Assembly: GCA_036172315.1 (NCBI GenBank)
Contig: JASFBC010000139.1
Location: 1,728 to 65,727, forward strand
Source: Anaerolineae bacterium
Lineage (GTDB): Bacteria; Chloroflexota; Anaerolineae; B4-G1; DUEL01
Reading direction: 5' to 3'
DNA length: 64,000 nucleotides
In this document: in pieces, positions 4,721 through 61,511 of the stretch
Layout of the letters: the number at the start of each line of letters is the position of its first letter
Numbering within the stretch: the first letter of the stretch is position 1
The notes under the pieces: model-generated
Database searches by the model: none
Seen by the model: only the letters and a program-made list of their open reading frames with translations
What the model was told of the DNA's origin: nothing
Program-made: the position numbers and the translations under genes

Positions 4721-6097
4721 ATGGAAGAAATTGTCCCGATAACAGAAGAAGAAACTCGTCTCTCCCGACCGGATGAAGCCCCGCGCGAGATTGTTCCGGG
4801 CGTGCCGGCCGACATCCTGGAGATGGGGGTGTTGGAGGAGTGGACGCTTGCGGACCTGCGGGAGTTAGCCCGAAAGATGGGGGTCTCCGGCTACAGCCGG
4901 CTGAAGAAAGAGGACCTGATCCTGCGCATCCTCCAGGCGAAAGCGGAGCGGGAAGGGCTGACTTTCCGGGGAGGCGTGCTGGAGATTCTGCCCGAGGAGG
5001 GGGTGGGCTTCCTGCGGGGGCCCAATTATCTCCCCGGTCCAGAAGATGTCTACGTCTCTCCGTCCCAGATTCGGCGCTTCGGCCTGCGCAACGGTGATCT
5101 GGTCATCGGCCAGGTCCGGCCGCCCAAGGAGACGGAGCGGTGGTATAGCCTGCTGCGGGTGGAGACGGTCAACGGGATGGACCCGGAACAGGCCAAATTG
5201 CGCCCCCGCTTTGAGAAACTGACCCCCATCTTCCCGACCCACCGGCTCATCATTGAGACGGACCGGCACAACCTGACCACCCGGTTACTCAGCCTCATCG
5301 CGCCCATCGGTAAAGGGCAGCGGGGCCTCATCGTCTCGCCGCCAAAAGCCGGGAAGACGACCGTCCTCAAACACATCGCCAACGGCATCACTGCCAACCA
5401 TCCGGAGGCCCATCTGATGGTTGTCCTCATCGGAGAGCGGCCGGAGGAGGTGACCGATATGGACCGGTCGGTGGAGGCGGAGGTCATCAGTTCCACCTTT
5501 GATGAACCGGTCCAGAATCACACCAAAGTGGCCGAGATGGCATTGGAGCGGGCCAAACGGCTGGTGGAGTGCAAAAAGGATGTGGTCATCCTGCTGGATA
5601 GCATCACCCGGCTGGCACGGGCGTACAACCTGGTCGTCCAGCCCAGCGGACGCACTCTCTCCGGTGGCCTGGACCCGGCCGCCCTCTACCCGCCCAAGAG
5701 TTTCTTCGGCGCGGCCCGCAACCTGGAAGAGGGCGGCAGCCTCACCATCATCGCCACCTGTCTGGTGGACACCGGCAGCCGGATGGACGATATGATTTAT
5801 GAGGAGTTCAAGGGGACCGGAAATATGGAACTCCACCTCAGCCGGCGGCTGCAGGAACGGCGCATCTTCCCCGCCTTTGACATTGAGCGGTCGGGCACCC
5901 GCCGGGAGGAGTTGCTCCTGGATCCGGATACGCTGCAGAAGGTCTGGCTGATGCGCAAGATGATCGCCCAGATGGTAGCCCCGCCGCCGGCCGGCGCCGG
6001 GTACGACCTGACGACGGTCACCGAGTCGGTGCTGCAGCACCTGGCCCGCACGCGCAACAATCGGGAATTCCTGGATACGCTGAAAGAAGCCATGTAG
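4721..6097 (+). CDS. rho: Transcription termination factor Rho (with ~40-aa N-terminal extension)
   Basis: Rho N-terminal and OB-fold regions, Walker [17 protein letters not shown], and the C-terminal RecA-like domain. 458 aa. Confidence 0.93.
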
Positions 6098-6112
6098 CGC
6101 TGTAGCACAAGA

Positions 6113-6877
6113 TTAATCTTGGGCTACGGTTTCCAGCCACTCCTGCACCGCGCTTGCCACCCGGTCTGGCTTCTCCAGCATCACCATGTGACCGGCTCCC
6201 TCTACCGGGATCCAGCGCGCGCCGGGAATGCGTTCCGCCAGCCACTGCCCAAACTTCGGCGGCGTCATCCGGTCTTCTGAGCCGGTGATCACCAGCGTCG
6301 GCGCGGTGATCTCCCCCACTCGCTCCCGGACATCAAAGCGGTCGCATGCGGCGAAATCCCCCCACACGACCTGAGGGTTTACGCGCGCCATCATCCGGCG
6401 GCCCCGGGCGACCATTGCCGGGTCGGCTTCCGGGCCCCAGGCCCATTCGGTGATGAGGGCCACCGTTCCCCGCGCGTCCTGCAGAATCCCCTCCAGGATG
6501 ACAGGCGCCACCCGTAAGCGCGCGCCAGTGCCCACCAGCACCAATCCGGCAACCCGCGCGGGAGCCAGCAGGGCCGCCATCTGGGCAATAGCGCCTCCCA
6601 TGGAATGCCCCACCAGCACTCCGCGCGCGACCCCTGTGGCATCCATAAAGCGGATGACGTCGGTGGCGTAGTCCTCTATCCGCTCCCGGCCCGGTCCCTC
6701 CGACCGCCCGTGTCCGGGCAGGTCTATGGCGTAGACGGTGGCACCGGGCATGCGGCGCAGTGCGGCCGGCCAGTGGAGGTGATTCCCGCCCGCCCCGTGG
6801 ATCAGGATCAGGGCAGGCCCTCCTCGCCCGCTAACGGTGTAGAAAAGGTGCTGTTCTCCTATCTGAGCAAAAGGCAT
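6113..6877 (-). CDS. Alpha/beta-fold hydrolase
   Basis: HGAGGN..GHSMGG nucleophile-elbow motif. The start is chosen at MPFAQIGEQ (GGAGGA SD 5 nt upstream); the ORF track extends to 6985. Confidence 0.75.
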
Positions 6878-11461: not shown

Positions 11462-11712
11462 AGGAACTGGTCGGACAGGTCTCCCACTGGTACGGTAAAA
11501 TCAGCGTGATGGGCGTGACGCTCACCGGACGGCTGGCCGTGGGCGATACCATCCGCGTGCGCGGCCACACCACCGACTTCACCCAGCGGGTCACCTCTAT
11601 GCAGGCCTGGCATCAGGACATCGCCGAGGCCAGCCCGGGCGACCAGATCGGCATCCGCGCCGCCTTCCGCGCCCGCCCCGGCGACCGGGTCTATAAGATA
11701 ACCAGCGGGTAG
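11443..11712 (+). CDS. Small beta-barrel protein, EF-Tu domain-2-like (hypothetical, 89 aa)
   Basis: VMGVTLTGRLAVGDTIRVRGHTTDFTQ...GDQIGI resembles the EF-Tu domain-2 fold. Overlaps the prfB end by 19 nt. Its 3' ~115 nt are tandemly duplicated downstream. Confidence 0.55.
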   Translation: MDEQPVEELVGQVSHWYGKISVMGVTLTGRLAVGDTIRVRGHTTDFTQRVTSMQAWHQDIAEASPGDQIGIRAAFRARPGDRVYKITSG

Positions 11713-11730
11713 CGCAAGATTTATCTTGCC

Positions 11731-11872
11731 CTTCACCCAGTGGGTCACCTCTATGCAGGCCTGGCACCAGGAGATCGCCGAGGCCGGCCCGGGCGACCCG
11801 ATCGGCATCCGCGCTGCCTCCCGCGTCCGCCCCGGCGATCGGACCTCAGTGCAAGATCGATCTTGTGCCTGC
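11731..11872 (+). repeat. Diverged tandem duplicate (~90% identical) of the 3' end of the upstream 89-aa gene, including its terminal palindrome
   Basis: Nucleotide alignment 11575-11725 vs 11731-11872. Both copies end with a CAAGATnnATCTTG palindrome. Confidence 0.75.
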
Positions 11873-25062: not shown

Positions 25063-26511
25063 CTACGGCACCAAGGAAGTCACCGCTGCCACCGTCTCCA
25101 GGTCCGGCCCCCAGAGGACGGTGACGACGCGGCCGGTGCGGTAGAGGTAGGCCGCTCCCGCCGGCCCGCTCCAGAACCGCCCCGTCAGGCCCAGCGGAGG
25201 ATCGGTGGCGACCAGCGGCGGGTTGCGGAACCCGGGCACCAGCAGCGCATACGCGCGCTCAAACTCCACCGCCTCTTCCCGGTTCTCCCATACCAGTCGC
25301 CAGGCGATGACCTCCCGGCCCGCCGTATCCCTCCAGAGGGTAAAGGTATCCCCGGCCCAGCCGTCGGCGGCGCGGCGGGCGGCCTCGTCGTCGTCCAGAT
25401 AGGCCGCCAGGTGCAGGCCGACCAGAAACTCGCCAACGGTGTCCCGCCGGGCCAGGCTCCAACCTTTGCCCAGAACCGACGCCAGGTCCGGGATGGCAGG
25501 CTCCAGGGCGGAGTGGCGGGCCCGGTACCGCTCCGGGTGCAGGACCTCCTGGGTGCTGCAGGGCGGAGCGGCGTAGGCGCGGTTCACGGCATCCCAGCCG
25601 CCGTCGGCGTAGAGCGCGGCCACGAAACGGGCCCCTTCCCGATACGGGAACAGGCGAATCGCTGCAAAGGTAGCGGCGTTCGCTACTGGCGCGTAGGTCG
25701 GCTCCTCGGCCCCGGCCGCCAGGGCGGCGAGACGGTCCACTTCCTGAGGGGCGGTGTCCAGTCCGGCGTAGCGGGCGGTGGTGAGGACGGCATCCCCCTC
25801 CAGAAGCGCCCGCAGAGCCAGCGCGGCGTCCGTCGTGGGCCGGCAGGCGGCGGCCAGCGGGACGCGCGGCGGTTCGGCATCCGGGCCCAGCCCGAACCCG
25901 CTGTCCTGGAGCGCATGGGCCAGGGTGTGCACCAGCGCCAGTTCATCGTCGGGGGTGGCGGGCCCCCGGCCCGCCACCAGCAAAATCTGCCGTCCCGCCG
26001 GGGCATAGAGGCTGAATACCCGGGCGGCCTGCGCGGTCACATCCGGCAGCGGGAGCGGATCCAGCCGGGGTACCAGCCCCAGCAGGCCATAAAGGGCCAG
26101 GGCCTCCTGCGGGCGGATGTCGCTGTACCGGTGAAGAAGGTAGAGGGCGATCTCCCGCTCCGACGGGAAAGTTACAGGAAACTGCTCCACCGGCGGGAGG
26201 TCCCGTACCCGGGCCAGGATACGGGCCACCTCATGCACCGCGCGGGCGCTCTGAATCTGGGAGAGGGGAACGGCCCGCGTGGGAGTCGGGGCGGCCGTCG
26301 GGGAGGCAACCGTTGGGGCAGGAGAAGACTCCGCGATGACCGCAGGGGATTCCAGGGGGGGTGTTGGCCCCTGCGGTGAGGGAAGGGGAGAGAGGGCCGT
26401 CATCTGCCGCGTGGTGGTGACCACGACATAGCCGAAGAGACCAAAGACGGCAATGACGGCGGTCGCCATCAGAGCCAGGATCAACCGCTGGCGGGGTGTG
26501 AACCCCCTCAC
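25063..26511 (-). CDS. Hypothetical membrane-anchored protein with a Pro/Thr/Ala-rich linker
   Basis: N-terminal TM helix and a 482-aa ORF. Tightly coupled to the downstream DUF218 gene. No confident family. Confidence 0.55.
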   Translation of the reverse strand: MRGFTPRQRLILALMATAVIAVFGLFGYVVVTTTRQMTALSPLPSPQGPTPPLESPAVIAESSPAPTVASPTAAPTPTRAVPLSQIQSARAVHEVARILARVRDLPPVEQFPVTFPSEREIALYLLHRYSDIRPQEALALYGLLGLVPRLDPLPLPDVTAQAARVFSLYAPAGRQILLVAGRGPATPDDELALVHTLAHALQDSGFGLGPDAEPPRVPLAAACRPTTDAALALRALLEGDAVLTTARYAGLDTAPQEVDRLAALAAGAEEPTYAPVANAATFAAIRLFPYREGARFVAALYADGGWDAVNRAYAAPPCSTQEVLHPERYRARHSALEPAIPDLASVLGKGWSLARRDTVGEFLVGLHLAAYLDDDEAARRAADGWAGDTFTLWRDTAGREVIAWRLVWENREEAVEFERAYALLVPGFRNPPLVATDPPLGLTGRFWSGPAGAAYLYRTGRVVTVLWGPDLETVAAVTSLVP

Positions 26512-27230
26512 CGCAAAGCCTCCTCCTGGGCGGCGATGAGTGCCTCAATCCCCCGACGGGCCAGGTCCAGCATTCGCTCCAGCCGATAACGGGAGAAAGG
26601 AGATTTCTCCGCTGTCCCCTGCACCTCTACAAACCGTCCGTCCCCTGTCATTACCACGTTCAGGTCCACCTCGGTCTGGCTATCTTCTTCATAACAGAGG
26701 TCCAGCCGGACCTCGCCCTGCACAATGCCGACACTGACGGCAGCGACGGGGGTGCGAATGAGGTCCGGAGGAACGATTCCCCGCGCGGCCAGGCGGCGCA
26801 GGGCCAGGGCCAGGGCGATGTATCCTCCGGTGACAGCGGCGGTGCGGGTGCCGCCGTCGGCCTGGAGGACGTCGCAATCCAGGATCAGCGTCCGCTCCCC
26901 CAGCCGGGTCAGGTCCAGGCCGGCGCGCAGGGAGCGGCCGATGAAGCGGCGGATTTCCTGCGTCCGCCCACCGGTCAGGCCGTTCTCGCGCGGCGTGCGG
27001 ATGTGGGTAGAACGGGGCAGCAGCGCGTACTCTGCCGTCAGCCAGCCCTGCCCGGAGCCCGCCAGCCAGCGTGGCACCCCCTCCTGCAGGGTCAGGTTAC
27101 AAAGCACGCGGGTGCGCCCCCATTCCACCAGCACCGACCCCTCCGGGTAATCCACGTAGTCCAGGAGGAAGCGGACGGGGCGGAGTTCATCGGGCTGTCG
27201 CCCATCAGGTCGGAAGACAACGCGGGACAT
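26508..27230 (-). CDS. rph: Ribonuclease PH
   Basis: RPDGRQPDELRPV, GSVLVEWGRTRVLC, TAEYALLPRST and DCDVLQADGGTRTAAVTG. Confidence 0.92.
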   Translation of the reverse strand: MSRVVFRPDGRQPDELRPVRFLLDYVDYPEGSVLVEWGRTRVLCNLTLQEGVPRWLAGSGQGWLTAEYALLPRSTHIRTPRENGLTGGRTQEIRRFIGRSLRAGLDLTRLGERTLILDCDVLQADGGTRTAAVTGGYIALALALRRLAARGIVPPDLIRTPVAAVSVGIVQGEVRLDLCYEEDSQTEVDLNVVMTGDGRFVEVQGTAEKSPFSRYRLERMLDLARRGIEALIAAQEEALR

Positions 27231-27241
27231 CGCACTCCCTT

Positions 27242-27332
27242 CCTCACCCCACCCCCGCTGCCTTCGGCGGCACCCTCTCCCCTCTCCGGAACTTTGTTCA
27301 GGTGAGGGAGGGGGCAGGGGGGAGGGGTGAGG
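27242..27332 (-). repeat. ~90-nt two-hairpin element E1 (outer stem CCTCACCCCACCCC/GGGGAGGGGTGAGG, a UUC-loop hairpin, and a 14-bp hairpin); a second copy lies at 57879-57970
   Basis: ~85% identical to 57879-57970, with compensatory changes in the small hairpin (gctgcc-ttc-ggcggc vs ggccc-ttc-gggcc). Sits between the O-antigen-ligase gene stop and the rph ATG. Confidence 0.7.
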
Positions 27333-27336
27333 AGCC

Positions 27337-30300
27337 CTACGGTGTGACAGGAACGGAGGGCTGAAGTTGCCCGATCAGTTGCTCTATGGCCGGCTTCTGC
27401 TCCTCCGGCGCCATCTGGAGCGCCGTCTGGGCTTCCGCCAGCGCCATCTCCAGGAGCCCCTTCTGGTAATAGGCGATCGCCAGCAGCCGGTGGGCATCCC
27501 AGGCCCAGGAGCCGGTGGGATCCAGTTCCAGCGAGCGGCCCAGCGCTTCCACCGCCAGGTCGTCCTGCCCCTGCTGCAGATACACCCGCGCCAGCGCATT
27601 CCAGACCTGGGGCATAGCGGGCACAATTTCCAGAGCCTTCCGATACGCCTCTGCCGCCCCTACCAGGTCCCCTTTCATCGCCCGGGCATCCCCAACGATG
27701 AGCCAGGTCTGCTCAAAGCCATCGTCCACTGCCAGAGAGCGGTTGATACACTCCCAGAATCTCTCCTCGTCCCTCAAACTGTAAAAATAGAGAGTAGCCC
27801 ACTGGTTCCAGAGGATGGGGTTATTGGGGCTCAGCGACGTGGCGGCCTCGTAATAGCGGGAGGCCAGGTTCAGAAGCGTCTCCCGCTGGGCCTGCCCGGC
27901 GGGAAGGTCGGCCCAGCGCTGGTACATCCGGGCCAGGTTGGCCGAATGGTCGGTGTTGAGCGGGCTCAGCGCCTGGGCCTGCAGGAGCACCCGTTCCGTC
28001 TCCCGCAGAATCGCCTCCTGCTGGGTTGTGTCGGTGGTGACAGTCGCCGCCTCCAGCAGCGCGCGGCCTAGATAGAGGTAATAGAAATCCTCGTGGGGGG
28101 CCAGTTGGACCGCCCGCTGGTAGTGGGGGACGGCCGCTCCCCACTGTCCGCTCCGGTCCCATGGGTCGGCCTGCTTGTAGATGATATCAGCGCGGATGGG
28201 GCGCAGGTTGGCCTGCACCGCGCCGAATGCCGCCAGCGGGAGCAGGACCGCCAGCGCCACCGGCCCCCAGGCTGTCCCCCACTTTTTGGGTATCCACCGC
28301 TCCCCCGCCAGCGCCAGCCCGCCCAGGAAAATCACCACGGCCAGAAAGCCGTAATAGGCCCCGATCTGCCCGGCGATGTACTCTGCCAGGCGCAGCAGGT
28401 CGTTGACGTTCTGGACCCTCATCCGCAGCACAGCAGCATGGCGCCCTGCCAGCAGCAGGCCAAAGGTCATCCCTACCGTCAGGGATACCAGGAGGACGAT
28501 CAGGGCTGCCAGCCACAAATCCCCCCGCCGCTGTCCGAATACCCCCCGGTGGGCCATCTGGGTGACGGTCAGGAGGGTAGTCATCGCCCAGGCCATACCG
28601 AAGACCAGGAGGATGCCCAGGGACTGGCGGGGCGGGCCGCCGATGGCGATGACTGTCAGCGAGCGCCAGAAAATCTGCGCGGGGTTGCTCAGCCGCTCCA
28701 CGTTGTTGACGAAGTCATAGGCCAGGGTGCCCAGGATGAGGGCGCCGATGAGGGCAGAGCCCAGCGCGGGCCAGAGCCAGGCGGGGACAGCGGAAGACGG
28801 CGCGGGTGGAGGAGTCGCCGGCCGGCGCCGCCGTTTCCTTCCCTTTGACTTGGGGGACGGCACCGTCTGCGGCGCGGCGGGTCGCTCCTCCCGCTCCGTA
28901 ATGGCCTGAGTGCCCAGGAGGACAAAAACCGCCGCTAGGGTCCAGAAGGTGGTCCGGGTGGACGCAATGGCGATGCCGAAGTTAATCTCCACCAGATGGG
29001 CCACAAAGGCAGCCAGAATGCCGATGAGCAGAATCTGGTGGGGATGGGCCGCTGGGAGGGACTCCGGGGAGAAGAAACCACAGATGACCAGATAAGCCAG
29101 CATTCCCAGGACCATCCCCACCGGAACCGCCAGCCCGAAAAAGTGAGGGCCGACAGTGGGGATGACGGCCGCGACAGCGGCCAATGCGCCCGTCACCAGC
29201 AAGCCGAAAAACAGCCGCCGCCGGGATGGGTCCGGAATCCACCCCAGCCAGGAGAGGCCATAGTAAAAGAGACTGCCGAAGAGCCAGAGGTACGCCGCAA
29301 ACCCCACCAATCCCGTGATGACCAGCGAGTCCAGCGTCTCGTTGTGAGAACGGTCCGGTGAGGCCGTGCGAGACTCGTAATGGCCCAGGAGGGGCGGGTA
29401 AAAACGGTTATAGGCCACATACATGGACTCCGGGCCGTAGCCGACCAGTGGGCGGATGAGATTGAAGGGATCGGGGTGACCGGTGGGGTCGGCGGTGGTG
29501 GCGGGATACTGAATAGGTTGGTGGGGCAGGACCAGGCGCCGGGCCCCCTCCCAGATGAGGGAGCGGACCTTGCCGGTGCCGGTCTCCGCCTGGAGGACGT
29601 CGTCCAGCCGGCCCATCCAGGGTTGCTCCTGGGCCCAGGCGTGGACGGGCTCGGCCAGGTTGACCGTGAGGAAGCCGGCGGCGAAGAGGAGGACAGTGAC
29701 CAGCGCGGCCGCCCACAGCCAGCGCCACCCCCGCCCGTTCACGATGAAGGCTAGCCAGGAGCCGGCGATGACCAGCAGGGCGCCCACAGCCGGTGCCCAC
29801 TGCAGGGATGGGTTTGCCTGCGCGGCGCCGCGCAGGGCCAGATAGAGCCCGGCACCCACTATCCCGGCCCCGACGATGCTCCCCAGTCCGAAAGTGATAC
29901 CAGCCTGAACATCCTCCAGAAGGTCCGTTGGATGAGGGACTTCCCGCAGAGCGGCGCGCCGCAGCGCCAGCAGTCCCAGGAACGCCCAGACGGCCAGCCC
30001 CATCACCAGCCCCATCAGCGGCCCCCGGCTGTGAGTGTACCAGATGCTGATGACCTGGACCAGGAAGATGAAAATATAGGCGGCCGCCCGCAGGACTTCG
30101 GAAATCCCGGCCTTCTCGTCCGTCAGAAGGGAGCGGAAGGCGTCCACCGCGCGCCCCAGCGTGGGGAATGCGGCCATAATCATATACGCGGCGACGAAAA
30201 TGGGGTTGCCCATATTGGAAGCCACCCGCTGGGTCACGTCGCCGCCCCAGGGAAGGGGGTCCCGGCGGGCGTGCTGGACGAATCCGTAAAGGGCGATGGG

Positions 30301-30747
30301 CAGACTGTTGAGAATGAGCGTCGTGATGAACCGGTCCACCTGAGCGCGGGTACGCATCCGGTCCAGGATGATGAGAAAAACGACGATATAAGAGAGCGTA
30401 GTGAACGTCCCCTGAAGCCGCTGGTAGGAGCCGAAGAAACTGGTGTACGGAGTGACCGAGAAGGCAGTGCTGATCAAGTAGACCAGGACGGTGAAGAGAG
30501 TCGGCAGGACCAGGGGGGTGCGCCAGGAGAAGCGCAGGCGACCCCCACCAGCGACCCATCCCTCCACCCGGCGGGCCAGCCAGACGGCGGCCATCACCAG
30601 GGCGATGGAGCGCAGGGTGGTCAGTTTATCCGGTTCAAAGACGCGGCTGGAGTAGATGTTGAAAAAAAGGGGCGTGACGATGATGGCCGCCAGCCATCCG
30701 GCCTCCAGAATGCCGTCCAGAATCGCGCTGAAGCGGGTGGTGTTCAT
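27337..30747 (-). CDS. O-antigen ligase/polymerase-like (Wzy_C) polytopic membrane protein with a C-terminal TPR domain
   Basis: More than 12 TM helices with a Wzy_C-like core. The C-terminal ~350 aa consist of TPR repeats. 1136 aa. Confidence 0.7.
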   Translation of the reverse strand: MNTTRFSAILDGILEAGWLAAIIVTPLFFNIYSSRVFEPDKLTTLRSIALVMAAVWLARRVEGWVAGGGRLRFSWRTPLVLPTLFTVLVYLISTAFSVTPYTSFFGSYQRLQGTFTTLSYIVVFLIILDRMRTRAQVDRFITTLILNSLPIALYGFVQHARRDPLPWGGDVTQRVASNMGNPIFVAAYMIMAAFPTLGRAVDAFRSLLTDEKAGISEVLRAAAYIFIFLVQVISIWYTHSRGPLMGLVMGLAVWAFLGLLALRRAALREVPHPTDLLEDVQAGITFGLGSIVGAGIVGAGLYLALRGAAQANPSLQWAPAVGALLVIAGSWLAFIVNGRGWRWLWAAALVTVLLFAAGFLTVNLAEPVHAWAQEQPWMGRLDDVLQAETGTGKVRSLIWEGARRLVLPHQPIQYPATTADPTGHPDPFNLIRPLVGYGPESMYVAYNRFYPPLLGHYESRTASPDRSHNETLDSLVITGLVGFAAYLWLFGSLFYYGLSWLGWIPDPSRRRLFFGLLVTGALAAVAAVIPTVGPHFFGLAVPVGMVLGMLAYLVICGFFSPESLPAAHPHQILLIGILAAFVAHLVEINFGIAIASTRTTFWTLAAVFVLLGTQAITEREERPAAPQTVPSPKSKGRKRRRRPATPPPAPSSAVPAWLWPALGSALIGALILGTLAYDFVNNVERLSNPAQIFWRSLTVIAIGGPPRQSLGILLVFGMAWAMTTLLTVTQMAHRGVFGQRRGDLWLAALIVLLVSLTVGMTFGLLLAGRHAAVLRMRVQNVNDLLRLAEYIAGQIGAYYGFLAVVIFLGGLALAGERWIPKKWGTAWGPVALAVLLPLAAFGAVQANLRPIRADIIYKQADPWDRSGQWGAAVPHYQRAVQLAPHEDFYYLYLGRALLEAATVTTDTTQQEAILRETERVLLQAQALSPLNTDHSANLARMYQRWADLPAGQAQRETLLNLASRYYEAATSLSPNNPILWNQWATLYFYSLRDEERFWECINRSLAVDDGFEQTWLIVGDARAMKGDLVGAAEAYRKALEIVPAMPQVWNALARVYLQQGQDDLAVEALGRSLELDPTGSWAWDAHRLLAIAYYQKGLLEMALAEAQTALQMAPEEQKPAIEQLIGQLQPSVPVTP

Positions 30748-31709
30748 CTATCTTCCTCGGGCATCGCCTCTACCAGTTCGCCGTAGGAGAAAATGATATG
30801 AAAGCCCAGGGCCTGGATTCGCTCCTGTACCTCCGGCCGGGCCCGGTAGCAGAAGCAGACGGGAAAGATTTCTCCCTCCAGGTTGCGGCGGGCTATTTCC
30901 ACCGTTCGGGCGAACTTTTCCACTTCCCGCATCGTCAGATTGTGTTTGGCCTCCCCCACAATCCAGATGCGCCGTTCCGGTTGGGCCGGGTCGCGGGCCT
31001 CGCCGAAGATGTTGACCTCCCGCTTCTGGCCATCCCACCGCTGCCAGACCCGCTTCAGTTCTCCCACCTGCCAGCCCTTTTTCTGGCCGAGGACCCGGTG
31101 GATCACGATGTAGGCGATGTCTTCTATATCTCCACCAACGGTTTCGCTGAGTCCACCGACCTGGTGGGCCAGTCTATCCACTTTTCGCTCGGTGCGGGCC
31201 TGGGCCGCCGCCAGTTCCTCAATCCGCGCCTCGGTGCGGGCTTGAGCCCTGGCCAGTTCCTCAACCCGCGCCTCCGTCCGGGCCTGGGCCTCCGCCAGCC
31301 GGTCCAGCGCGGCTTCTATGCGGGCAAAGCGGGCCTCCGAAGCCTCCCGGTATTTCCGGAATTCCTCCTCGGTGCGGGCCTGGGCCTCCGCCAATTCTCG
31401 GACCTGCGCTTCGGTGCGGGCCTGGGCCTCGGCCAGCCGGTCCAGCGCCGCTTCTATGCGGGCAAAGCGGGCCTCCGAAGCCTCCCGGTATTTCCGGAAT
31501 TCCTCCTCGGTGCGGCCCTGGGCCTCGGCCAGTTCCTGGATGCTCTCTTTGAGGTCCTGGACGTCCTCGCGGGTGGCAAACTCCCCCCGAATCTGCCCCG
31601 CGATCAGACCGAGAGTATCGGCCAGGATTTCAGCCTGAGGCTCATCAAACGCGTTGAGAAAACGCCGAAAGAGCAGAGAGCGTTCCAAGTTCGTGATCGA
31701 GATACTCAT
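30744..31709 (-). CDS. Coiled-coil protein with a C-terminal PD-(D/E)xK nuclease-like domain (DUF3782-like), containing an internal 46-aa tandem repeat
   Basis: Start MSISITNLERS with an AGGAGG SD. EEFRKYREASEARFARIEAALDRLAEAQARTEA occurs twice (a 138-bp direct nucleotide repeat at ~31288-31563). The C-terminus has IWIVGEAK (ExK) and E..IFGEARD. Confidence 0.6.
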   Translation of the reverse strand: MSISITNLERSLLFRRFLNAFDEPQAEILADTLGLIAGQIRGEFATREDVQDLKESIQELAEAQGRTEEEFRKYREASEARFARIEAALDRLAEAQARTEAQVRELAEAQARTEEEFRKYREASEARFARIEAALDRLAEAQARTEARVEELARAQARTEARIEELAAAQARTERKVDRLAHQVGGLSETVGGDIEDIAYIVIHRVLGQKKGWQVGELKRVWQRWDGQKREVNIFGEARDPAQPERRIWIVGEAKHNLTMREVEKFARTVEIARRNLEGEIFPVCFCYRARPEVQERIQALGFHIIFSYGELVEAMPEEDR

Positions 31710-47729: not shown

Positions 47730-47968
47730 CGTTTCTCCTCCTGGGTTGGTAAATGGTAGATTGGTGATCGGTAAATTGGTATGGGGTCGGGGGATGTATC
47801 CGTCTTCTCCTCCAGGCATCACCTCCTTTCGCACAGATGAGAACTGACACGCTCTATAAATAATACAGTTTGCGGGCCAAAAAGGTTCAAATCAGACCAC
47901 AGACGATGGACGACAATCGTCCGTGGTCCGAGGTCCGTCGTCAGTCGTCCGTGGTCCGTCGTCCGTGG

Positions 47969-49621
47969 TCAGTGATCGGTAGTCAGTGACCGGACCATAT
48001 ACGTTCCCTCCAGGCGGAAGCCGCGCGCCCGGTAGTAGGGGCGGGTGCCGACGGCAGCGATGACGGCCAGCCGCCGGTAGCCGGCCTCCCGGGCCATGTC
48101 CGCCGCCCGCTCCAGGAGACGGGTGCCCAAGCCCGTGTGCTGGGCCCGCCCATCCCGCCGCCGGCCCAACTCCAGCGCCGGACCGTAGACATGGAGTTCC
48201 CGCACCACGGCGCTCCCGCGCAGTTCTTCCAACTCCGGCTCCACCCGGGGGAAAGAGAGCCGCAGGAAGCCCGCCAGATGCCCGTCCGGAGTCTCGCCCG
48301 CCAGGAAGTGCTCCACCGTGGCGTCGGTCTCGTAGGAGGTGACGGTAAGGGCCAGGGACGACGGGTCCACCGGCCGGCCGCGCACCTCCCGGCAGCGGAT
48401 GCACCGACAGCGCAGGCCCTGGCGCATCATCTCCGCCCGCACCACCTCCCGCAGGTTGGAACGGGTCACCCCAGCGACGATGTTCGGGGCCGGGATGTCC
48501 CGCATCAGGCGGTTGAGCCGGACGTAGGGAGGGATGAGGGCTTTGCAGGCCACCAGTAGCCGGACCAGCGTCTCCTCGTCGTAGGGCCGGTACTTTCCTT
48601 CCCGCCAGAGGTCGTAGAGGTCGGTCTCCTCCAGGAGCAGACAGGGGTAGATTTTCAGTTCGTCGGGCCGCAGAGCGGGGTCCTCCCACAACCGCCGGAA
48701 GTCTTCCAGGTCCCGCTCCGGGGTGGCACCGTAGAGATCGGGCATCCAGTGGAGGAGGATTTTGAAGCCCGCCAGGCGGAGCCGCCGGACGGCAGCGCGG
48801 GTCTCAGCGACGGTGTGGCCGCGCCGGTTAAGGGCCAGAATCTCGTCGTTCAGGCTCTGGACGCCCAGTTGGACTTTGGTCACCCCCAGGGCGCGCAACC
48901 GGCGGACTTCATCCGGGGTAATGCAGTCGGGCCGGGTCTCCACCACCAGCCCGACGTTGCGGTGAGGGGCCGTCTCGTTGCGGGTCTGGGCCTCTACCAG
49001 GGTCGGGGACTCCTCTCCGTTCATCGCATCCAGGCAGCGGCGGACGAACCATTCCTGGTAGTCGGGGGAGTAGTCGGACCAGGTGCCGCCCAGGATGAGG
49101 AGTTCTACCTTGTCGGTGGGGTGGCCGATGTTCTCCAGCGCCTGGAGGCGGCCCGCCGTCTGGGCAAAGGGGTCGTAGCCGAAGCGGATGGCCCGCTGGA
49201 CCCCCGGCTCGTCGGGGAGGTAGGATTTGGGGGCATTGGGGACGGTCGGGCAGTAGAGGCAGCGGCCCCGGCATGGGTGCGGCGGGGTCAGGACGGAGAC
49301 GGGGGCGACGCCGGAGATGGTGCGGGTGGGCTTGCGGCTCAAGGCCTGCTCCAGGCGCGGGTCGGGCGTCAGTTCGCCCACGGCGCAGAGGCGGCGGTAG
49401 GCGCGCAGGAGTTGGTCGCGAGAATAGAGGCCACCGCCAGGGCGGGGGTATTGGCGGATGATGGCCTCTACCCGTCTGGGCGTCAGGTGCCCGGCAGAGG
49501 CCAGGGCGCGCACGCAGGCCGCGCCCTCGGGGGCAACCGCAAGGGTTGTCCCTACAACGGTGGCCGCCAGAGATGGCTGGTATCGTTCATCAGCACCAGG
49601 CGGTAGAATTTCCCATTCCAT
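47969..49621 (-). CDS. Elp3-like radical SAM / GNAT acetyltransferase (tRNA U34 carboxymethyl-modification enzyme homolog)
   Basis: Radical SAM motif CRGRCLYCP, SGVAPVSVLTPPHP, a central radical SAM core, and a C-terminal GNAT (RRLAVIAAVGTRPYYRARGFRLEGTYMVRSL). An alternative GTG start at ~49513 would avoid the 70-nt overlap with the upstream gene. Confidence 0.8.
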   Translation of the reverse strand: MEWEILPPGADERYQPSLAATVVGTTLAVAPEGAACVRALASAGHLTPRRVEAIIRQYPRPGGGLYSRDQLLRAYRRLCAVGELTPDPRLEQALSRKPTRTISGVAPVSVLTPPHPCRGRCLYCPTVPNAPKSYLPDEPGVQRAIRFGYDPFAQTAGRLQALENIGHPTDKVELLILGGTWSDYSPDYQEWFVRRCLDAMNGEESPTLVEAQTRNETAPHRNVGLVVETRPDCITPDEVRRLRALGVTKVQLGVQSLNDEILALNRRGHTVAETRAAVRRLRLAGFKILLHWMPDLYGATPERDLEDFRRLWEDPALRPDELKIYPCLLLEETDLYDLWREGKYRPYDEETLVRLLVACKALIPPYVRLNRLMRDIPAPNIVAGVTRSNLREVVRAEMMRQGLRCRCIRCREVRGRPVDPSSLALTVTSYETDATVEHFLAGETPDGHLAGFLRLSFPRVEPELEELRGSAVVRELHVYGPALELGRRRDGRAQHTGLGTRLLERAADMAREAGYRRLAVIAAVGTRPYYRARGFRLEGTYMVRSLTTDH

Positions 49622-56858: not shown

Positions 56859-56960
56859 GATTGTCTGAAAACCACGAAGGACGCGAAGAGCGCAACGGGA
56901 GTTTGGGGCAACGGCCTCGCCGTCGTTCCAAACTCCCGTTTTTTCTACGCAGGGTATCTT

Positions 56961-59225
56961 TTACTGAACCCGAATCCGGCTCAGGAGCAGGAAATTCTGG
57001 CCGTCCTCCAGCCGGAGACGTTCGCCGGTATCGGGCCGGTAAAGACCGATTTCCACCTCGTAGAAGCCCGGCGGCGTCTCCGGCTTCACCCGCAGCGTAT
57101 AGGTCTCCCGATATACCTCCCCGGCCCGCCACTGAGACGTGGGCGGGGTCGGCGGACGGTCCTCTTGCCCCCAGAGGGTCTGCGGCGGCTCCAGGATGTG
57201 GGTAAAGACGGTGTAATCGTGTTCTGTGGGGCCAAGGGCTCGCCAGTACAGGGCCAACACGACCGTATCGCCGGGCCGCACCCGCCGGGGGGCCAGTTCG
57301 TACCCCACCAGTTCTATCCGGTCGCCGAAACGGTAGGAGACGGGGTTGGGATAGGGGCCCGGCCGGGGCCGAAGCGCTATTTCTCCGAAAGAAACGTAGC
57401 GCTGGCTGTCAGCCTGCCCGGCAACTGGCATCCGCTCCCGGGTCCGCAGGTCGTAGAAGCCCATCATCAGCGAAAGGCGCGCCGGAGCCACAGCGGTCTC
57501 AGGCACCCGCAGGCGGAAGACCTCCGCCCAGCGTTCCCCGGCCCGCAGTTGGGTCGCCCGGACCAGCCCCTGGCGGGGGTAGCGGTCGTCCTGGGCCAGG
57601 ATGATCTCCAGGTCGTCCACCAAGTGGACGAAGAGGCTCCAGTCCCGCGTCGGGGGCCGGAGGGCCTCCAGATAGAGCGTCAGGTCTACAGTCTCCCCTG
57701 GCTCCAGCGAGGATGGACGGAGGTCATACCCCAGCAGGCGGAACTCGTCGCCGAAGGTTGCCTCCATGGGGTTGGGGACCTCCACCGGAACGGGCAGATC
57801 AGGGGGACGGTAGGCGGGGGCGATCCAGAGGGCCGGCGCCAGCAGGGCCAGGGTCCCCAGGAAGACGGCAGGAAGGAACCTCACCCCACCCCCGGCCCTT
57901 CGGGCCACCCCTCTCCCCTCTCCTGAACTTTGTTTAGGAGAGGGGAGAGGGGATAGGGAGGGGGGTGAGGAAAGCACCCGCGCCACCTGCTCCCAACCGA
58001 TCCACAGTCCCAGGGAGATGAGCCCGATGGCGGGGAACATCAGCCGCCCTTGGGAGGCGAGGGTCTGGGAGGTCCAACGCAGGAAGGCCGCGAGGAGCAC
58101 CGTCATATAGCCCAGGAGCCCCAATCCGACGGCCCACCTTTCCCCCCAGGCACGGGTGCGGACCGCGTGGGTCAGCCCCCGGCCCACCCGAGCCAGAAGC
58201 CCCAGGGTTGCCAGAGCGGTCCAGGCGTCCAGCACCCGGTATATCCACACTGGCATCAGGACGTTCATCCCCCCGAAGACGCCCCAGAAAGACCAGCGGA
58301 AGCCCTGGAATTCCCGTAGAAGGTCGGCGGGGGTGGCGGCTCGCCGCCCGACGATGTCCAGCATCACGGAGAGTCCAAAGGGGTCATGGTAGAGGGTCCA
58401 GTTGCGCCAGAACCACCAGCCACAGAGGGCCAGGGCGGTGGAAAACACTGCCAAAAGCGCCAGGCCCTTCTGGGAGGAGCGCGGGGCTTTGACCAGCAGA
58501 ACAACCAGCGCCAGAGGCCAAAGGGTCAGACCGCTCAGTTTGGCCAGCGCGGCCGTCCCGAGCACAACTCCCAGCAAGAGGGCGCGCGGCCAGGAGAATC
58601 CCCGCCGCCAGATGATGGCCAGCAACCAGAGCCCGGCGGCGGTGCCAGCGTTAACCAGGGTATCGTTGTTCACCGACGCAGCGATGAAGAGGAACATCGG
58701 GTTAACGGCAACCAGCAAGCCACTCCCCAGGGCCCAGCCTGGGTGGTCAGGAAAGAGGAGGCGCACCGTGCTCACTGTCGCCAGGACCGTCAGCAGGCCC
58801 AGTGATACCGAGACCAGCCGCCAGAGGTGGAGGGTGAGGATAGTGCCACGCCAGGGGAAGGCTTCGCCGGGGCCATGTAGCGCCTGATTCCGGTTGGCGA
58901 TGCGGGAGGTGTCGCCAGAGGAAGCATGGGGGTTTGGGAGGTAGACGACGTCCAGATCATCCAGGGGAAGGCGGAACAGGTGGGTGAACCCGGCCAGCAG
59001 GGCATAGTAGAGGGGGGGCTGACTGCCTTCCTGTCGCCAGGGCGTCTCCTCCCCGGGGTGCTGCACCGGGAGTCCCTCACCCCGCGTCAGCCGGCCCACC
59101 ATGCCGATGTGCCACCTTTCGTCGGAAGACTCAAAGAGGGGGTTGGCCGCGCTGTACAGGAGAGCCAAGGCCAGGTAGAGGAGCAGGAGAGGCATTCGCT
59201 GAAAAGAGAAGCGCTGATCGGACAT
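56961..59225 (-). CDS. GT-C fold glycosyltransferase (PMT/ArnT-like, GT39/GT83 type) with a C-terminal twice-repeated beta-rich domain. The ORF contains an in-frame copy of the ~90-nt repeat E2 and may be two genes
   Basis: N-terminal ESSDERWH (DE motif in loop 1) and more than 10 TM helices. Residues ~420-450 (SSPPSLSPLPSPKQSSGEGRGVARRAGGGVRF) are the translation of element E2. Downstream are a signal-peptide-like segment and a duplicated F.LLGYDL..G..V.L.LYW domain. Confidence 0.65.
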   Translation of the reverse strand: MSDQRFSFQRMPLLLLYLALALLYSAANPLFESSDERWHIGMVGRLTRGEGLPVQHPGEETPWRQEGSQPPLYYALLAGFTHLFRLPLDDLDVVYLPNPHASSGDTSRIANRNQALHGPGEAFPWRGTILTLHLWRLVSVSLGLLTVLATVSTVRLLFPDHPGWALGSGLLVAVNPMFLFIAASVNNDTLVNAGTAAGLWLLAIIWRRGFSWPRALLLGVVLGTAALAKLSGLTLWPLALVVLLVKAPRSSQKGLALLAVFSTALALCGWWFWRNWTLYHDPFGLSVMLDIVGRRAATPADLLREFQGFRWSFWGVFGGMNVLMPVWIYRVLDAWTALATLGLLARVGRGLTHAVRTRAWGERWAVGLGLLGYMTVLLAAFLRWTSQTLASQGRLMFPAIGLISLGLWIGWEQVARVLSSPPSLSPLPSPKQSSGEGRGVARRAGGGVRFLPAVFLGTLALLAPALWIAPAYRPPDLPVPVEVPNPMEATFGDEFRLLGYDLRPSSLEPGETVDLTLYLEALRPPTRDWSLFVHLVDDLEIILAQDDRYPRQGLVRATQLRAGERWAEVFRLRVPETAVAPARLSLMMGFYDLRTRERMPVAGQADSQRYVSFGEIALRPRPGPYPNPVSYRFGDRIELVGYELAPRRVRPGDTVVLALYWRALGPTEHDYTVFTHILEPPQTLWGQEDRPPTPPTSQWRAGEVYRETYTLRVKPETPPGFYEVEIGLYRPDTGERLRLEDGQNFLLLSRIRVQ
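57879..57970 (-). repeat. Second copy (E2) of the ~90-nt two-hairpin element, located in-frame inside the GT-C ORF
   Basis: ~85% identity to 27242-27332 with compensatory stem changes. Confidence 0.7.
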
Positions 59226-59249: not shown

Positions 59250-60410
59250 TCAGCGATTAAAGCGCCCCAAAAACGCCGCACTCCGGCGGGCGATGCGGTC
59301 CCAGGAGAAATCGGCAGCGAGGGCCCGCGCGCCGGCTTCCAGGCGGGCCCGCAGCGCTGGATCACGCCAGACCTGCAGGACCGCTTCTGCCAGCGCGCCC
59401 ACGTCCCGGGGCGGCACCAGCCGCATGTTTTCCCCGTCCCGTACCTCTGGCAGCGGCAGGGCCGGGTGGGTGGTGACGATGGCTCGCCCATGGGCCAGGC
59501 AGGCATGCAGCGTCCCCCGCCGGAAGGAGACCCCGTCCCGGTAGGGGAGGACGCAGAGGTCGGTCGCCAGAAGGCCCGCCGAGACCGCCTGAGGGTCGGT
59601 ATAGCCGGTCCAGTGGACCCGCTCTGTCAGCCTCAATTCAGCAATGAGGCCATCTATGAAAGCGGCGTAGGCCCGGTTGGTGGGGTCGGAGGTGCCCAAC
59701 CGCCCGCCGACCATCAGCAGGTGAGCCGGAACTCCTCGCTCCACCAGCAGAGCCAGCGTCCGGATCAACTCCTCCCCACCCTTGCTCTCGTTAAGGAAGC
59801 CGAAGTAGCCCAGGAGGAGGTCATCGGGGCCCACGCCCCAGCGGGCTCGCTCGGCGGCCCGGTTGTAGCCTGGAGGCGGCTCTGGCGGGATGTTACTCCC
59901 GATGGGGATCAGGGCCAGCCGATCCGGGGGAATTTCCCCCTCCAGCCGGAGGTAGTCCTCCCGGTTGGTGACGATCACGCCGTCGGCGCGGCGGGCCAGC
60001 AGACGGACCGCTTGCCAGCGCAGGGGGCCGGCCTTGGGAAAGAGATACGGCACCCGCAGGTCGTGGAAGGTGACCACCAGCGGCGGGCGTGCCGAGGGCC
60101 GGGGGAGGAAGTGGACCGCCGGGTGCATCCCATACGCGGCGGCCTGGTACTGGAGGTTCTGGACTTCCAGGCGCTCCGCCCGGGCCACCCGCAAGACCTC
60201 CCGCCAGCAGCCCCAGCGCCAGGAGGGGACGACACGATGCACGGCGCAGGGGGCAGGGGGCAAGTCGCGGGGGGCAGGGGAGCGTAGAGGGCCGGTGATG
60301 ATGTGGACGTCGTGGCCCAGCGCGGCCAGCGCTTCCGCCAGCCGGAAGGTGAAATCCCCTACGCCGCCCTGGTCGGGGGGAAATTCGCCGGTCACCAGTC
60401 CGATGCGCAT
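59250..60410 (-). CDS. Glycosyltransferase family 4 (GT-B, glycosyl transferase group 1)
   Basis: MRIGLVTGEFPPDQGGVGDF N-terminus and the C-terminal EX7E-type region. Start at MRIGLV. Confidence 0.85.
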   Translation of the reverse strand: MRIGLVTGEFPPDQGGVGDFTFRLAEALAALGHDVHIITGPLRSPAPRDLPPAPCAVHRVVPSWRWGCWREVLRVARAERLEVQNLQYQAAAYGMHPAVHFLPRPSARPPLVVTFHDLRVPYLFPKAGPLRWQAVRLLARRADGVIVTNREDYLRLEGEIPPDRLALIPIGSNIPPEPPPGYNRAAERARWGVGPDDLLLGYFGFLNESKGGEELIRTLALLVERGVPAHLLMVGGRLGTSDPTNRAYAAFIDGLIAELRLTERVHWTGYTDPQAVSAGLLATDLCVLPYRDGVSFRRGTLHACLAHGRAIVTTHPALPLPEVRDGENMRLVPPRDVGALAEAVLQVWRDPALRARLEAGARALAADFSWDRIARRSAAFLGRFNR

Positions 60411-60495
60411 AGGGTTTGCCCTAAACTCCCACCGGGACACAAAGAGCACTTATCGGGAATAGCGATAAGAGGGGCGGACGTGCACAAAGACAAGG

Positions 60496-60586
60496 AAAAT
60501 CCATATTCATCTGCGTTTCATCTGCGTTTATCTGCGTCCTAAAAATCCATATTCATCTGCGTTTCATCTGCGTTTATCTGCGTCCT
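60496..60586 (-). repeat. Two tandem copies of a 45-bp AT-richer unit, each made of three 11-nt sub-repeats (gene-strand ACGCAGATRAA), in the GT2-GT4 intergenic leader
   Basis: aaaatccatattcatctgcgtttcatctgcgtttatctgcgtcct occurs twice. The 11-nt period suggests iteron or response-regulator-type sites. Confidence 0.7.
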
Positions 60587-61511
60587 ACTTCCGACTGACC
60601 ATCGCCCGCACCACTTGCCGGTAGGCGGCGATGCGCTCCGCCCGCAGGGCCCGCTTGTGGCCCAGAAGCCACTTGCCCCCTTCCAGCCCAATCTGCCAGA
60701 GATAGTTGCCCAGGAGGACCAGCCGCAGGAGCCCCGCCGCGACCGGGCCGTGGTACTTGCGGAAGTAGCGGACCTTGCTGGTCTGGAAGTGGATATGACG
60801 GGCCGGGAGGACCTGTTCGCTGCTCTTGCCCACATGGTGAATCACCCGTGCGGTGGGCAGATAGACGACTCGCCAGCCCGCCTCCCGGAACCTCCGACAC
60901 CAATCCAGTTCTTCCGAGTACATAAAGAAGCCCTCGTCCAGCGGCCCCACCTGTTCTATCGCCTCACCCCGGGCCATCAGCGCCGCGCCGGTCACCCAGT
61001 CCACGTCCTGAATCTCGTCATCCGGGCGGTCCAGGACGTAGTAGCGCGAGAGCAGACGACGGGGAGCGTAGGGCTGGAGCCAGGTGGACTCCAGGAGAGC
61101 CGTCGCCAAGGTGGGGAAGCGGCGGCGGGAGGATTGCACCGTCCCGTCGGGGTTCAGCAGTTGGGGGCCCACGATGCCGACATCGGGATGGGCATCGGCG
61201 AAGGCGACCATCGTCTCCAGAGCGTTGCCTATCACTTCGGTATCCGGGTTCAGCAGGAGGACATAGCGGCCCCGGGCAACGGCGAGTCCCTGGTTGTTGG
61301 CGGCAGGGAAACCCCGGTTATCGGTGTTGGCAATCAGGTGAACTTGAGGGAACTCCGTCCGGACCATCTCCCCGCTCCCGTCGGTGGAGCCATTATCCAC
61401 GACAATGATTTCCAGTGTGCAGGCGGGCGAGTTTGCGAGCAGGGACTGGAGGCAGCGCCGGAGAAGGTCCCGAACATTCCAGTTGACGATAAGAACGGAG
61501 AGGTCAACCAT
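60585..61511 (-). CDS. Glycosyltransferase family 2
   Basis: VLIVNWNVRDLL, VVDNGSTDGS and NRGFPAANNQG, paralogous to 15274-16176. Start at MVDLSV, 8 nt after the polyprenyl synthase stop. Confidence 0.85.
   Translation of the reverse strand: MVDLSVLIVNWNVRDLLRRCLQSLLANSPACTLEIIVVDNGSTDGSGEMVRTEFPQVHLIANTDNRGFPAANNQGLAVARGRYVLLLNPDTEVIGNALETMVAFADAHPDVGIVGPQLLNPDGTVQSSRRRFPTLATALLESTWLQPYAPRRLLSRYYVLDRPDDEIQDVDWVTGAALMARGEAIEQVGPLDEGFFMYSEELDWCRRFREAGWRVVYLPTARVIHHVGKSSEQVLPARHIHFQTSKVRYFRKYHGPVAAGLLRLVLLGNYLWQIGLEGGKWLLGHKRALRAERIAAYRQVVRAMVSRK

Follow-up and report, generated by a model that had tools for sequence, protein, structure and literature searches.

Nested-palindrome DNA repeats in Thermoflexales and related 'Anaerolineae' MAGs: two copies in one 64-kb window, one of them in frame within a membrane glycosyltransferase gene

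Among the small palindromic repeats of bacteria, the RPEs of Rickettsia lie between genes and also in frame within ORFs that encode full-length proteins, to which they add a short peptide (PMC3733652). The REP superfamilies carry a GTAG or CGTC tag at the end of a stem-loop, consist of a simple palindrome of 20–40 bp, are often arranged as inverted doublets and flank the gene of a cognate RAYT (Y1 HUH transposase) (Di Nocera et al. 2013, PMC3733652). Here we analyse two elements of about 90 nt, E1 and E2, found in a 64-kb stretch of DNA (the window, meaning the whole stretch that was analysed), whose proteins have homologues named Thermoflexales, Thermoflexus sp. or Anaerolineae MAG. E1 and E2 belong to a lineage-restricted family of miniature nested-palindrome DNA repeats, non-coding and 47–120 nt long, of which we found no description in the literature, the Thermoflexus genome paper included. 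We hold it very probable that the three parts of this reading go together, namely that there is a repeat family, that E2 is an in-frame insertion in a single gene and that the symmetry of the elements resides in the DNA rather than in an RNA. The features concerned are as follows.

26508–27230, minus strand: rph (RNase PH), directly downstream of E1 on the minus strand
27242–27332, no strand assigned: E1, intergenic repeat copy with a partly decayed central palindrome (covariance model E 1e-12, both strands)
27242–27256, no strand assigned: left terminal arm of E1, CCTCACCCCACCCCC, which pairs with 27317–27332
27257–27271, no strand assigned: small hairpin module of E1, GCTGCC-TTC-GGCGGC, an 'A-type' GCCGCC hairpin with one C>T change
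27273–27314, no strand assigned: central palindrome of E1, CCCTCTCCCCTCTCCGGAAC-TTT-GTTCAGGTGAGGGAGGGGG, degenerate, with mismatches and a 1-nt gap
27317–27332, no strand assigned: right terminal arm of E1, GGGGGGAGGGGTGAGG
27337–30747, minus strand: ORF of 1136 aa encoding a membrane and TPR protein, with its stop codon 4 nt from E1
56961–59225, minus strand: host gene of E2, one gene, encoding a 754-aa DUF2142/GT-C-type membrane glycosyltransferase
57879–57970, no strand assigned: E2, intragenic repeat copy (covariance model E 4e-14)
57879–57893, no strand assigned: left terminal arm of E2, CCTCACCCCACCCCC
57894–57906, no strand assigned: small hairpin module of E2, GGCCC-TTC-GGGCC ('C-type', the same as in locus L002)
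57908–57952, no strand assigned: central palindrome of E2, with 21-nt arms, a TTT loop and a single G-T mismatch (GTTTA)
57956–57970, no strand assigned: right terminal arm of E2, GGGAGGGGGGTGAGG

Both elements lie where a preliminary description of this DNA had placed them, and their identity, given there as about 85%, measures 83% (79 of 95 columns in a global alignment over ~92 nt), with the modules in the same order. They have in common (i) the outer stem CCTCACCCCACCCC...GGGGTGAGG; (ii) a right end reading GG(G)GTGAGG; (iii) a small TTC-looped hairpin, whose stems (GCTGCC/GGCGGC in E1, GGCCC/GGGCC in E2) differ by compensatory changes, so that the shared stem and compensated hairpin reported earlier are indeed present in both copies; (iv) a centre in which a C/T-rich arm faces a G/A-rich arm around GAAC-TTT-GTT. 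The 14-bp hairpin that had been ascribed to both copies is part of this central palindrome; it is near-perfect in E2, but the right arm of the same palindrome is degenerate in E1 (GGTGAGGGAGGGGG). Folded as single strands, E1 and E2 adopt the same three-way junction, with minimum free energies, for the plus strand, of -68.3 kcal/mol (z -4.5) and -80.5 kcal/mol (z -9.6), respectively. The likeness of the two copies is more than chance: the two 14-mers, counted at up to two mismatches, occur nine times, versus 2.2–2.4 expected, a count reached by none of 100 shuffles, and a covariance model made from copies in other genomes matches E1 and E2 and nothing else in the window, with E values from 1e-12 to 1e-14.

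Outside the window, the family is hosted by Thermoflexales/Anaerolineae MAGs and hot-spring metagenomes. Scanning a genome collection with the apex motif returned seven true copies in such MAGs along with three chance matches (the MAGs with matches include CALDFY01, JBBIKR01 and JAPYWT01), and a metagenome scan returned 12 loci; no copy was found in a scan of viral contigs or by blastn against plasmids. Taken together, the covariance model and a reading of the loci put the number of distinct sites at about 20 within the 314 kb of DNA that was fetched. Copy density varies, from two per 64 kb in the window to none in about 70 kb of some relatives. Note that the covariance model was built from four-way copies only, the right half being misaligned by MAFFT when three-way and four-way copies were mixed.

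The architecture of the family is that of a fixed outer stem with optional contents. Nearly all copies are bounded by 15-nt inverted arms, CCTCACCCCWCCCCC and GGGGGWGGGGTGAGG. Most contain a perfect central palindrome of 19–21 bp, ...CCCCTCTCC-TGAAC-NNN-GTTCA-GGAGAGGGG..., which is missing from the 47-nt form of locus L025 and whose apex exists in four compensatory variants (TGAAC/GTTCA, CGAAC/GTTCG, TGGAC/GTCCA and TGACC/GGTCA). At the junctions between arms and centre, optional 6-bp GC hairpins (GCCGCC-NNN-GGCGGC, AGCGGC-NNN-GCCGCT or GGCCC-NNN-GGGCC) may stand on the left, on the right, on both sides (the four-way copies of L007, L014, L018 and L025) or on neither (L004, L006 and L021), which gives stem-only, three-way or four-way forms. 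The difference between the small hairpins of E1 and E2 is thus one between discrete, interchangeable modules of the GCCGCC, AGCGGC and GGCCC types that recur across the family. In 9 of the 13 copies that could be scored, position 10 of the outer stem holds a same-base mismatch, A·A on one strand and hence T·T on the other, and the orientation of this mismatch usually tracks that of the apex loop; this conserved non-palindromic position gives the element a polarity. In REP/IS200-type systems, conserved stem imperfections of this kind let hairpin-binding proteins tell one strand from the other. A canonical G4 motif occurs in E1, E2 and some other copies; the G-quadruplex was considered as a family feature and dropped, the motif being missing from the four-way forms.

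A rough gene call based on GC3 around 20 copies places most of them between genes, 0–50 nt from the ends of ORFs, and several fill an entire spacer. Some genes take their C-terminal tail or stop codon from the element, as at L002, where it supplies the tail and stop of SurE (the likeness of the L002 flank to that of E2 proved to be a coincidence, the L002 locus being a SurE gene), and four copies lie in frame inside real genes: E2, L025a and two in a PF10131 membrane protein at L007. The arms are pure pyrimidine or pure purine, and stops can therefore arise only at the junctions, as TGA (CTGAAC, GGTGAGG) or TAG (GTAGCGG); one to two reading frames per strand run through the element. With arms free of stops, each strand usually keeps one open frame or more, so that in-frame survival in tolerant loops is possible; we do not claim selection for this property.

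On the strand of its host gene (minus, 57971 to 57879), E2 amounts to 93 nt, or 31 in-frame codons, translated as SSPPSLSPLPSPKQSSGEGRGVARRAGGGVR, with the single G-T mismatch of the central palindrome changing Glu to Lys. About 38 aligned orthologues of the 754-aa protein are continuous over 730–767 aa (42–83% identity), and most lack a segment of about 20 aa at this place. In an alignment of 40 sequences, SSPPSLSPLPSPKQSSGEGR... occurs only in the window protein and its identical counterpart in a second, independent assembly (P0001, locus L026), where the site is filled in the same way; the other aligned orthologues run from ...GWExxxR through a short basic loop to the conserved helix LPAxFLGxLALLAPxLWIAP. 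In the DNA of the closest clade (L023 and L024), the loop is 'empty' at the E2 site. E2 lengthens it by about 20 aa and leaves the gene continuous; by comparison with the empty allele of L023, the sole filled/empty pair compared, it appears to take the place of about 12 native codons, and such a replacement does not fit clean cut-and-paste transposition. Preceded by a hydrophobic segment and followed by the last TM helix (residues 450–468), the insert brings five K+R for one D+E (net +4), which, by the positive-inside rule, suggests that it sits in a tolerated cytoplasmic loop. These comparisons support the earlier proposal that E2 is a repeat inserted in frame in the manner of the Rickettsia RPEs, since the orthologues are continuous, mostly without the extra residues, and the element recurs in other genomes. 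If E2 is translated through as part of a single protein, peptides spanning SPLPSPKQSSGEGR are expected. A phmmer search with the 31-aa E2 peptide against 1.8 billion representatives returned three weak matches, two of them translated CRISPR-like arrays, and a concatenated four-frame peptide query returned five, mostly terminal tails or probable start mis-calls; neither search was informative, a result that low-complexity words and composition filters probably explain.

The same codon junction is occupied in two further orthologues. That of L025 (P0007) has a 47-nt short form in the same place and frame, made of the arms and a GCCGCC hairpin without the central palindrome, and that of L030 (P0014) has a decayed version of this short form. 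The right junction, GGTGAGG|YTYCTYCCYGCC, is identical in the window, L025 and L030, and the left junction is common to the window and L030. In a neighbour-joining tree calculated with the loop masked, these three genes are not sisters, and the window gene branches within the element-free clade P0002–P0005. One explanation is that the element is an old resident of the loop or a domesticated linker that was inserted once in an ancestor, decayed in most lineages and was rebuilt in the window lineage through conversion by other copies, in which case a short form may be ancestral to the loop throughout the orthologue group. The shared frame and junctions in non-sister lineages are what such a history would leave; native loops, for example GRSRRLGPVLQALPA, look like the short-form peptide RRLRRLGGGVRLLPA, and the Glu to Lys change of E2 falls within a basic loop. 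However, the empty loop of L023 and the short form agree at about 44% of DNA positions in a manual codon-by-codon comparison, which we estimate to be close to what chance would give at this G+C content, the element is missing from P0002–P0005, the closest relatives of the window gene, and the window and L025 forms differ in the type and position of their hairpin and in the central palindrome. We regard the old-resident explanation as rather unlikely, if the best of the alternatives, and favour the insertion of a repeat into the gene. Three histories would account for the occupancy of this junction: (a) a single old insertion, spread or lost by recombination and rebuilt in place; (b) insertion recurring at one junction; (c) survivorship, the positions of the protein that tolerate an insert being few.

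Elements of the family are present or absent between close relatives, and their modules turn over at orthologous sites of closely related populations. With the same flanks, L005 has GCCGCCTGCGGCGGC and L012, L015 and L017 have AGCGGCTTCGCCGCT, all six differences being compensatory. Again between identical flanks, the small hairpin of L010 and L022 is enlarged by a 37-nt insert that is missing from L013, the copies of L006 and L018 contain the same insert of ~28 nt in the loop of the AGCGGC hairpin, and a loop is flipped between related elements (GAAAC in L017, GTTTC in L019). Some copies are themselves nested within a further inverted repeat, GTAAC..TTCAG...CTGAA..GTTAC. It is conceivable, although we would not bet on it, that the family is built like a modular 'onion', in which small hairpins insert into or replace each other at palindrome loops and junctions and the outer arms serve as fixed anchors. 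The idea draws on inner hairpins at orthologous sites that are swapped between the GCCGCC and AGCGGC types, enlarged by loop inserts of 28–45 nt or flipped in the loop, and on the one glycosyltransferase codon junction that holds different forms in three non-sister lineages. If true, it would imply single-strand insertion directed to hairpin loops, or copy-choice conversion, and could also mean site-specific targeting; to our knowledge, neither is on record for REPs, MITEs or RPEs.

The compensatory changes between E1 and E2 had been taken as covariation that implies selection on RNA or DNA structure. Pairing is indeed strongly kept: in an alignment that was fitted to the model and mixes both strands, 94% of cells are standard pairs, versus 77% in column shuffles (none of 500 reached 94%) and about 58% in slid controls, and 45 of the 47 pairs show changes on both sides. 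Yet this conservation fits a DNA palindrome or mobile repeat and not a functional RNA. The folding energies of the two strands of a copy differ by no more than a few kcal/mol, zero to two of about 40 pairs are G-U, the covariance model scores both strands equally, and the copies face either way with respect to neighbouring genes and occupy several reading frames. Since folding is strand-equal, both orientations occur, and modules come and go at orthologous sites, we interpret the apparent covariation as maintenance of a palindrome at the DNA level combined with module swapping, with no RNA motif. In the window, Rfam gave no match at gathering level, and relaxed scans found only hairpins of the miRNA-precursor type, with 10–38 bits against gathering scores of 35–168 bits.

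E1 makes up 91 of the 106 nt between the stop of the TPR ORF (27337) and the ATG of rph (27230), which lies 11 nt from it; the Shine-Dalgarno-like AAGGGAG of rph is outside. The start codon announced close to each copy is thus real for rph. In the orthologous spacer of L027, L028 and L029, whose rph genes are 92–94% identical, E1 is absent and other sequence stands in its place, and the comparison shows E1 to be a lineage-specific insertion. A search of E1 for terminator and promoter signals revealed no U-tract and no promoter consensus. If transcribed, E1 would give the upstream message a 3' end with a highly stable stem (about -60 to -68 kcal/mol), and since it has no U-tract it could at most act as an exonuclease barrier or 3' stabiliser for this message, not as an intrinsic terminator. 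The spacer of one relative holds a GTAG...CTAC hairpin from a different repeat family, and GTAG-tagged hairpins of a separate family are also found in the window, at 6102–6127 and 11709–11734.

That the element works as a structured RNA (cis-regulatory leader, 3' stabiliser or small RNA), through which E1 would regulate rph, can be argued from the very stable, covariation-supported fold, from the position of E1 just past the upstream stop and just ahead of the rph start, and from the REPs that are known to act in transcripts elsewhere in bacteria (PMC3733652). We consider it improbable: strands that fold and score equally with nearly all pairs Watson-Crick, copies in either orientation and in different frames within ORFs, optional modules, close relatives that do without the element upstream of rph, and the lack of an Rfam family at threshold, a U-tract or a promoter consensus in the searches above all speak against it. 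Individual copies may still have a role at the RNA or the protein level.

It had also been suggested that the 754-aa ORF is in truth a pair of genes with the element between them, the upstream stop having been lost, with a GTG following E2 as the start of a signal-peptide-like segment. This GTG is in frame and does lead into a hydrophobic stretch, but it belongs to the end of the element itself (GGGGTGAGG), its proximity is coincidental, and the stretch is the last TM helix, internal and conserved. As the roughly 38 orthologues are continuous, of similar length and mostly without the element, and as the gene call in L026 likewise gives one 754-aa product, the two-gene explanation is refuted, and E2 is best taken as an in-frame insertion in one gene. 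Finally, a chance resemblance between low-complexity coding sequence rich in Pro, Ser and Gly and an unrelated GC-rich intergenic hairpin might be entertained in a G+C-rich genome where C/T and G/A tracts are common, but is refuted by the 83% identity of E1 and E2 along some 92 nt and their shared order of modules, by model E values of 1e-12 to 1e-14, by motif counts that shuffles never match and by the presence of the same element in many other genomes.

How the family spreads can be outlined only tentatively. It would be selfish or mobile DNA that propagates as a hairpin- or cruciform-forming unit, mobilised most plausibly in trans, in a REP/RAYT- or MITE-like manner, by a transposase that would bind specifically to the terminal arms or to single-strand hairpins and that possibly acts on single-stranded DNA. 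Copies would then be homogenised or remodelled, and their palindromes kept perfect, by copy-to-copy conversion or by template switching inside the palindromes, and would persist only where they are harmless. Any specific mechanism of mobilisation is a doubtful proposition at present. In the window and the fetched loci, inspected by eye, neither a transposase nor a RAYT nor an autonomous IS sharing these ends came to light; the genes between the paired copies of L018 are, from their ORF translations read by eye, ECF sigma/anti-sigma- and thioredoxin-like, and the fetched DNA contains no kb-spaced pairs of element ends. No target-site duplication or single clear target motif is visible at about 15 copies; GGAR, a purine-rich sequence that immediately precedes the A-oriented end on its 5' side, was tried as a target and discarded, being present at 6 of about 15 copies, which is too inconsistent.

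In practical terms, the odd low-complexity linker of the glycosyltransferase and the GC-rich hairpin before rph become two copies of one repeat family, and knowing the family guards annotation against reading its copies as RNA motifs, as signal peptides or as the sign of a split gene. Its palindromes break metagenome assemblies (L016 and L019 resemble chimeric contig ends), and it could act as a strain-level marker. The work extends in-frame palindromic insertion, best known from Rickettsia, to thermophilic Chloroflexota. What may be new is the nested swapping of modules and the recurrent occupancy of one codon junction; if the turnover and recurrence do reflect a targeted mechanism, they would represent a new route by which small palindromes spread and remodel the loops of membrane proteins.

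Compared with the described systems, the family has features of each. Like the Rickettsia RPEs, it includes copies in frame (E2, L025a and the two L007 copies), in a segment shown for E2 to be missing from most orthologues; unlike them, it is hosted by Chloroflexota thermophiles, is shorter (47–120 nt), has homopyrimidine/homopurine arms and carries optional hairpin modules. Given the taxonomic distance, sequence homology to the RPE families is, as far as we know, unlikely. With REPs, REPINs and BIMEs, it shares extragenic palindromes near the 3' ends of ORFs that sometimes supply a stop or lie within genes, a mosaic modular make-up, conserved stem imperfections and the lack of a visible target duplication. 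However, the termini of all copies are CCTCACC/GGTGAGG, without a GTAG or CGTC tag, the unit is one of 47–120 nt with three- or four-way junctions instead of a 20–40-nt hairpin or simple doublet, and no RAYT candidate was seen by eye beside the copies in the 64-kb window and about 250 kb of fetched flanks. Like MITEs (Correia/CREE, ERIC, RUP, Nezha), the elements are non-coding, about 50–120 nt long and bounded by 15-nt TIRs, within the range of about 15–30 bp that defines MITEs, are polymorphic in presence or absence among relatives, and are in some insertions co-transcribed or co-translated with genes; they differ in that no target-site duplication is visible at about 15 copies and the fetched DNA yielded no parent IS whose ends match, in an interior that is itself a perfect palindrome with swappable hairpins, and in the E2 site, which looks like a replacement of native codons. 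In conclusion, the behaviour of the family matches that of intragenic REPs, Rickettsia RPEs (PMC3733652) and MITEs: the kind of event is already known, and the family is newly described.

The recurrence of a larger palindromic repeat, CCCCATCGCTCCGCTCTGGGGAAAGGGG...GGGCGGGCGGC-TTT-GCCGCCCGCCC..., close to contig ends in one MAG (S1_Bin_9) suggests that these genomes contain several palindromic repeat families. A nested-palindrome element distinct from the family of E1 and E2, the two copies found in the window, occupies a single orthologous site in L005, L012, L017 and L019, which are loci from other genomes or metagenomes.

Positions of the two palindromic elements in related loci
L002 5934-6067: CCCCATCGCTCCGCTCTGGGGAAAGGGG...GGGCGGGCGGC-TTT-GCCGCCCGCCC repeat
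L003 24-63: same repeat
L006 35-74: same repeat
L012 4976-5069: CCTCATCCCCCC...CCCCGAAACGGGG...GGAGAGGTGAGG nested-palindrome element
L017 2624-2753: same element
L019 13106-13235: same element
L005 4199-4297: same element

At the orthologous site of the nested-palindrome element, an inserted hairpin of ~36 nt is either present or absent, and the apex loop is flipped between samples (GAAAC vs GTTTC).

As for the E1/E2 family itself, L002 contains two copies in tandem, 2 nt apart (2770-2952), with a SurE gene on one side and a nucleotidyltransferase/HEPN pair on the other; the SurE stop codon and last ~25 codons fall within the first copy. Two metagenome contigs (L016 67-184 and L019 13710-13876) show mirror-image joins between a half-element and one shared foreign sequence, located at the element's central palindrome; these reflect either chimeric contig ends or a real rearrangement at the palindrome.

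The window also contains other repeats and hairpins. A 22-bp hairpin (56894-56940; 86% complementary, 3-nt loop) lies ~20 nt downstream of the stop codon of the 754-aa glycosyltransferase gene that hosts E2; it may be the terminator of this gene or a further repeat. A short distance upstream of the gene for the GT4 glycosyltransferase (- strand, 59250-60449), an AT-richer 46-nt unit, AAAATCCATATTCATCTGCGTTTCATCTGCGTTTATCTGCGTCCTA, which contains the sub-repeat CATCTGCGTTT, is perfectly duplicated in tandem (60496-60587). At 47911-47980, CGTCCGTGGTCCG forms the basis of a short tandem array (period 14/28 nt), and GC-rich direct repeats with 42-nt and 138-nt periodicity, containing ...CTCGGTGCGGGCCTGGGCC..., span 31162-31532, probably a repetitive coding region.

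Finally, a small palindrome unrelated to the E1/E2 family, GTAGCRCAAGATTNATCTTGSGCTAC, whose ends are GTAG...CTAC, is repeated at 6102-6127 and 11709-11734. The latter hairpin is flanked by a direct duplication of a gene 3' end (11577-11688 and 11731-11842; 112 nt, 92% identical), which is followed by a second hairpin, GTGCAAGATCGATCTTGTGC (~11849-11868). In L027, a relative lacking E1, a GTAG...CTAC copy (5946-5971) lies in the rph-upstream spacer, at the place of E1 in the window. The GTAGCRCAAGATTNATCTTGSGCTAC repeat looks like a GTAG-tagged REP.
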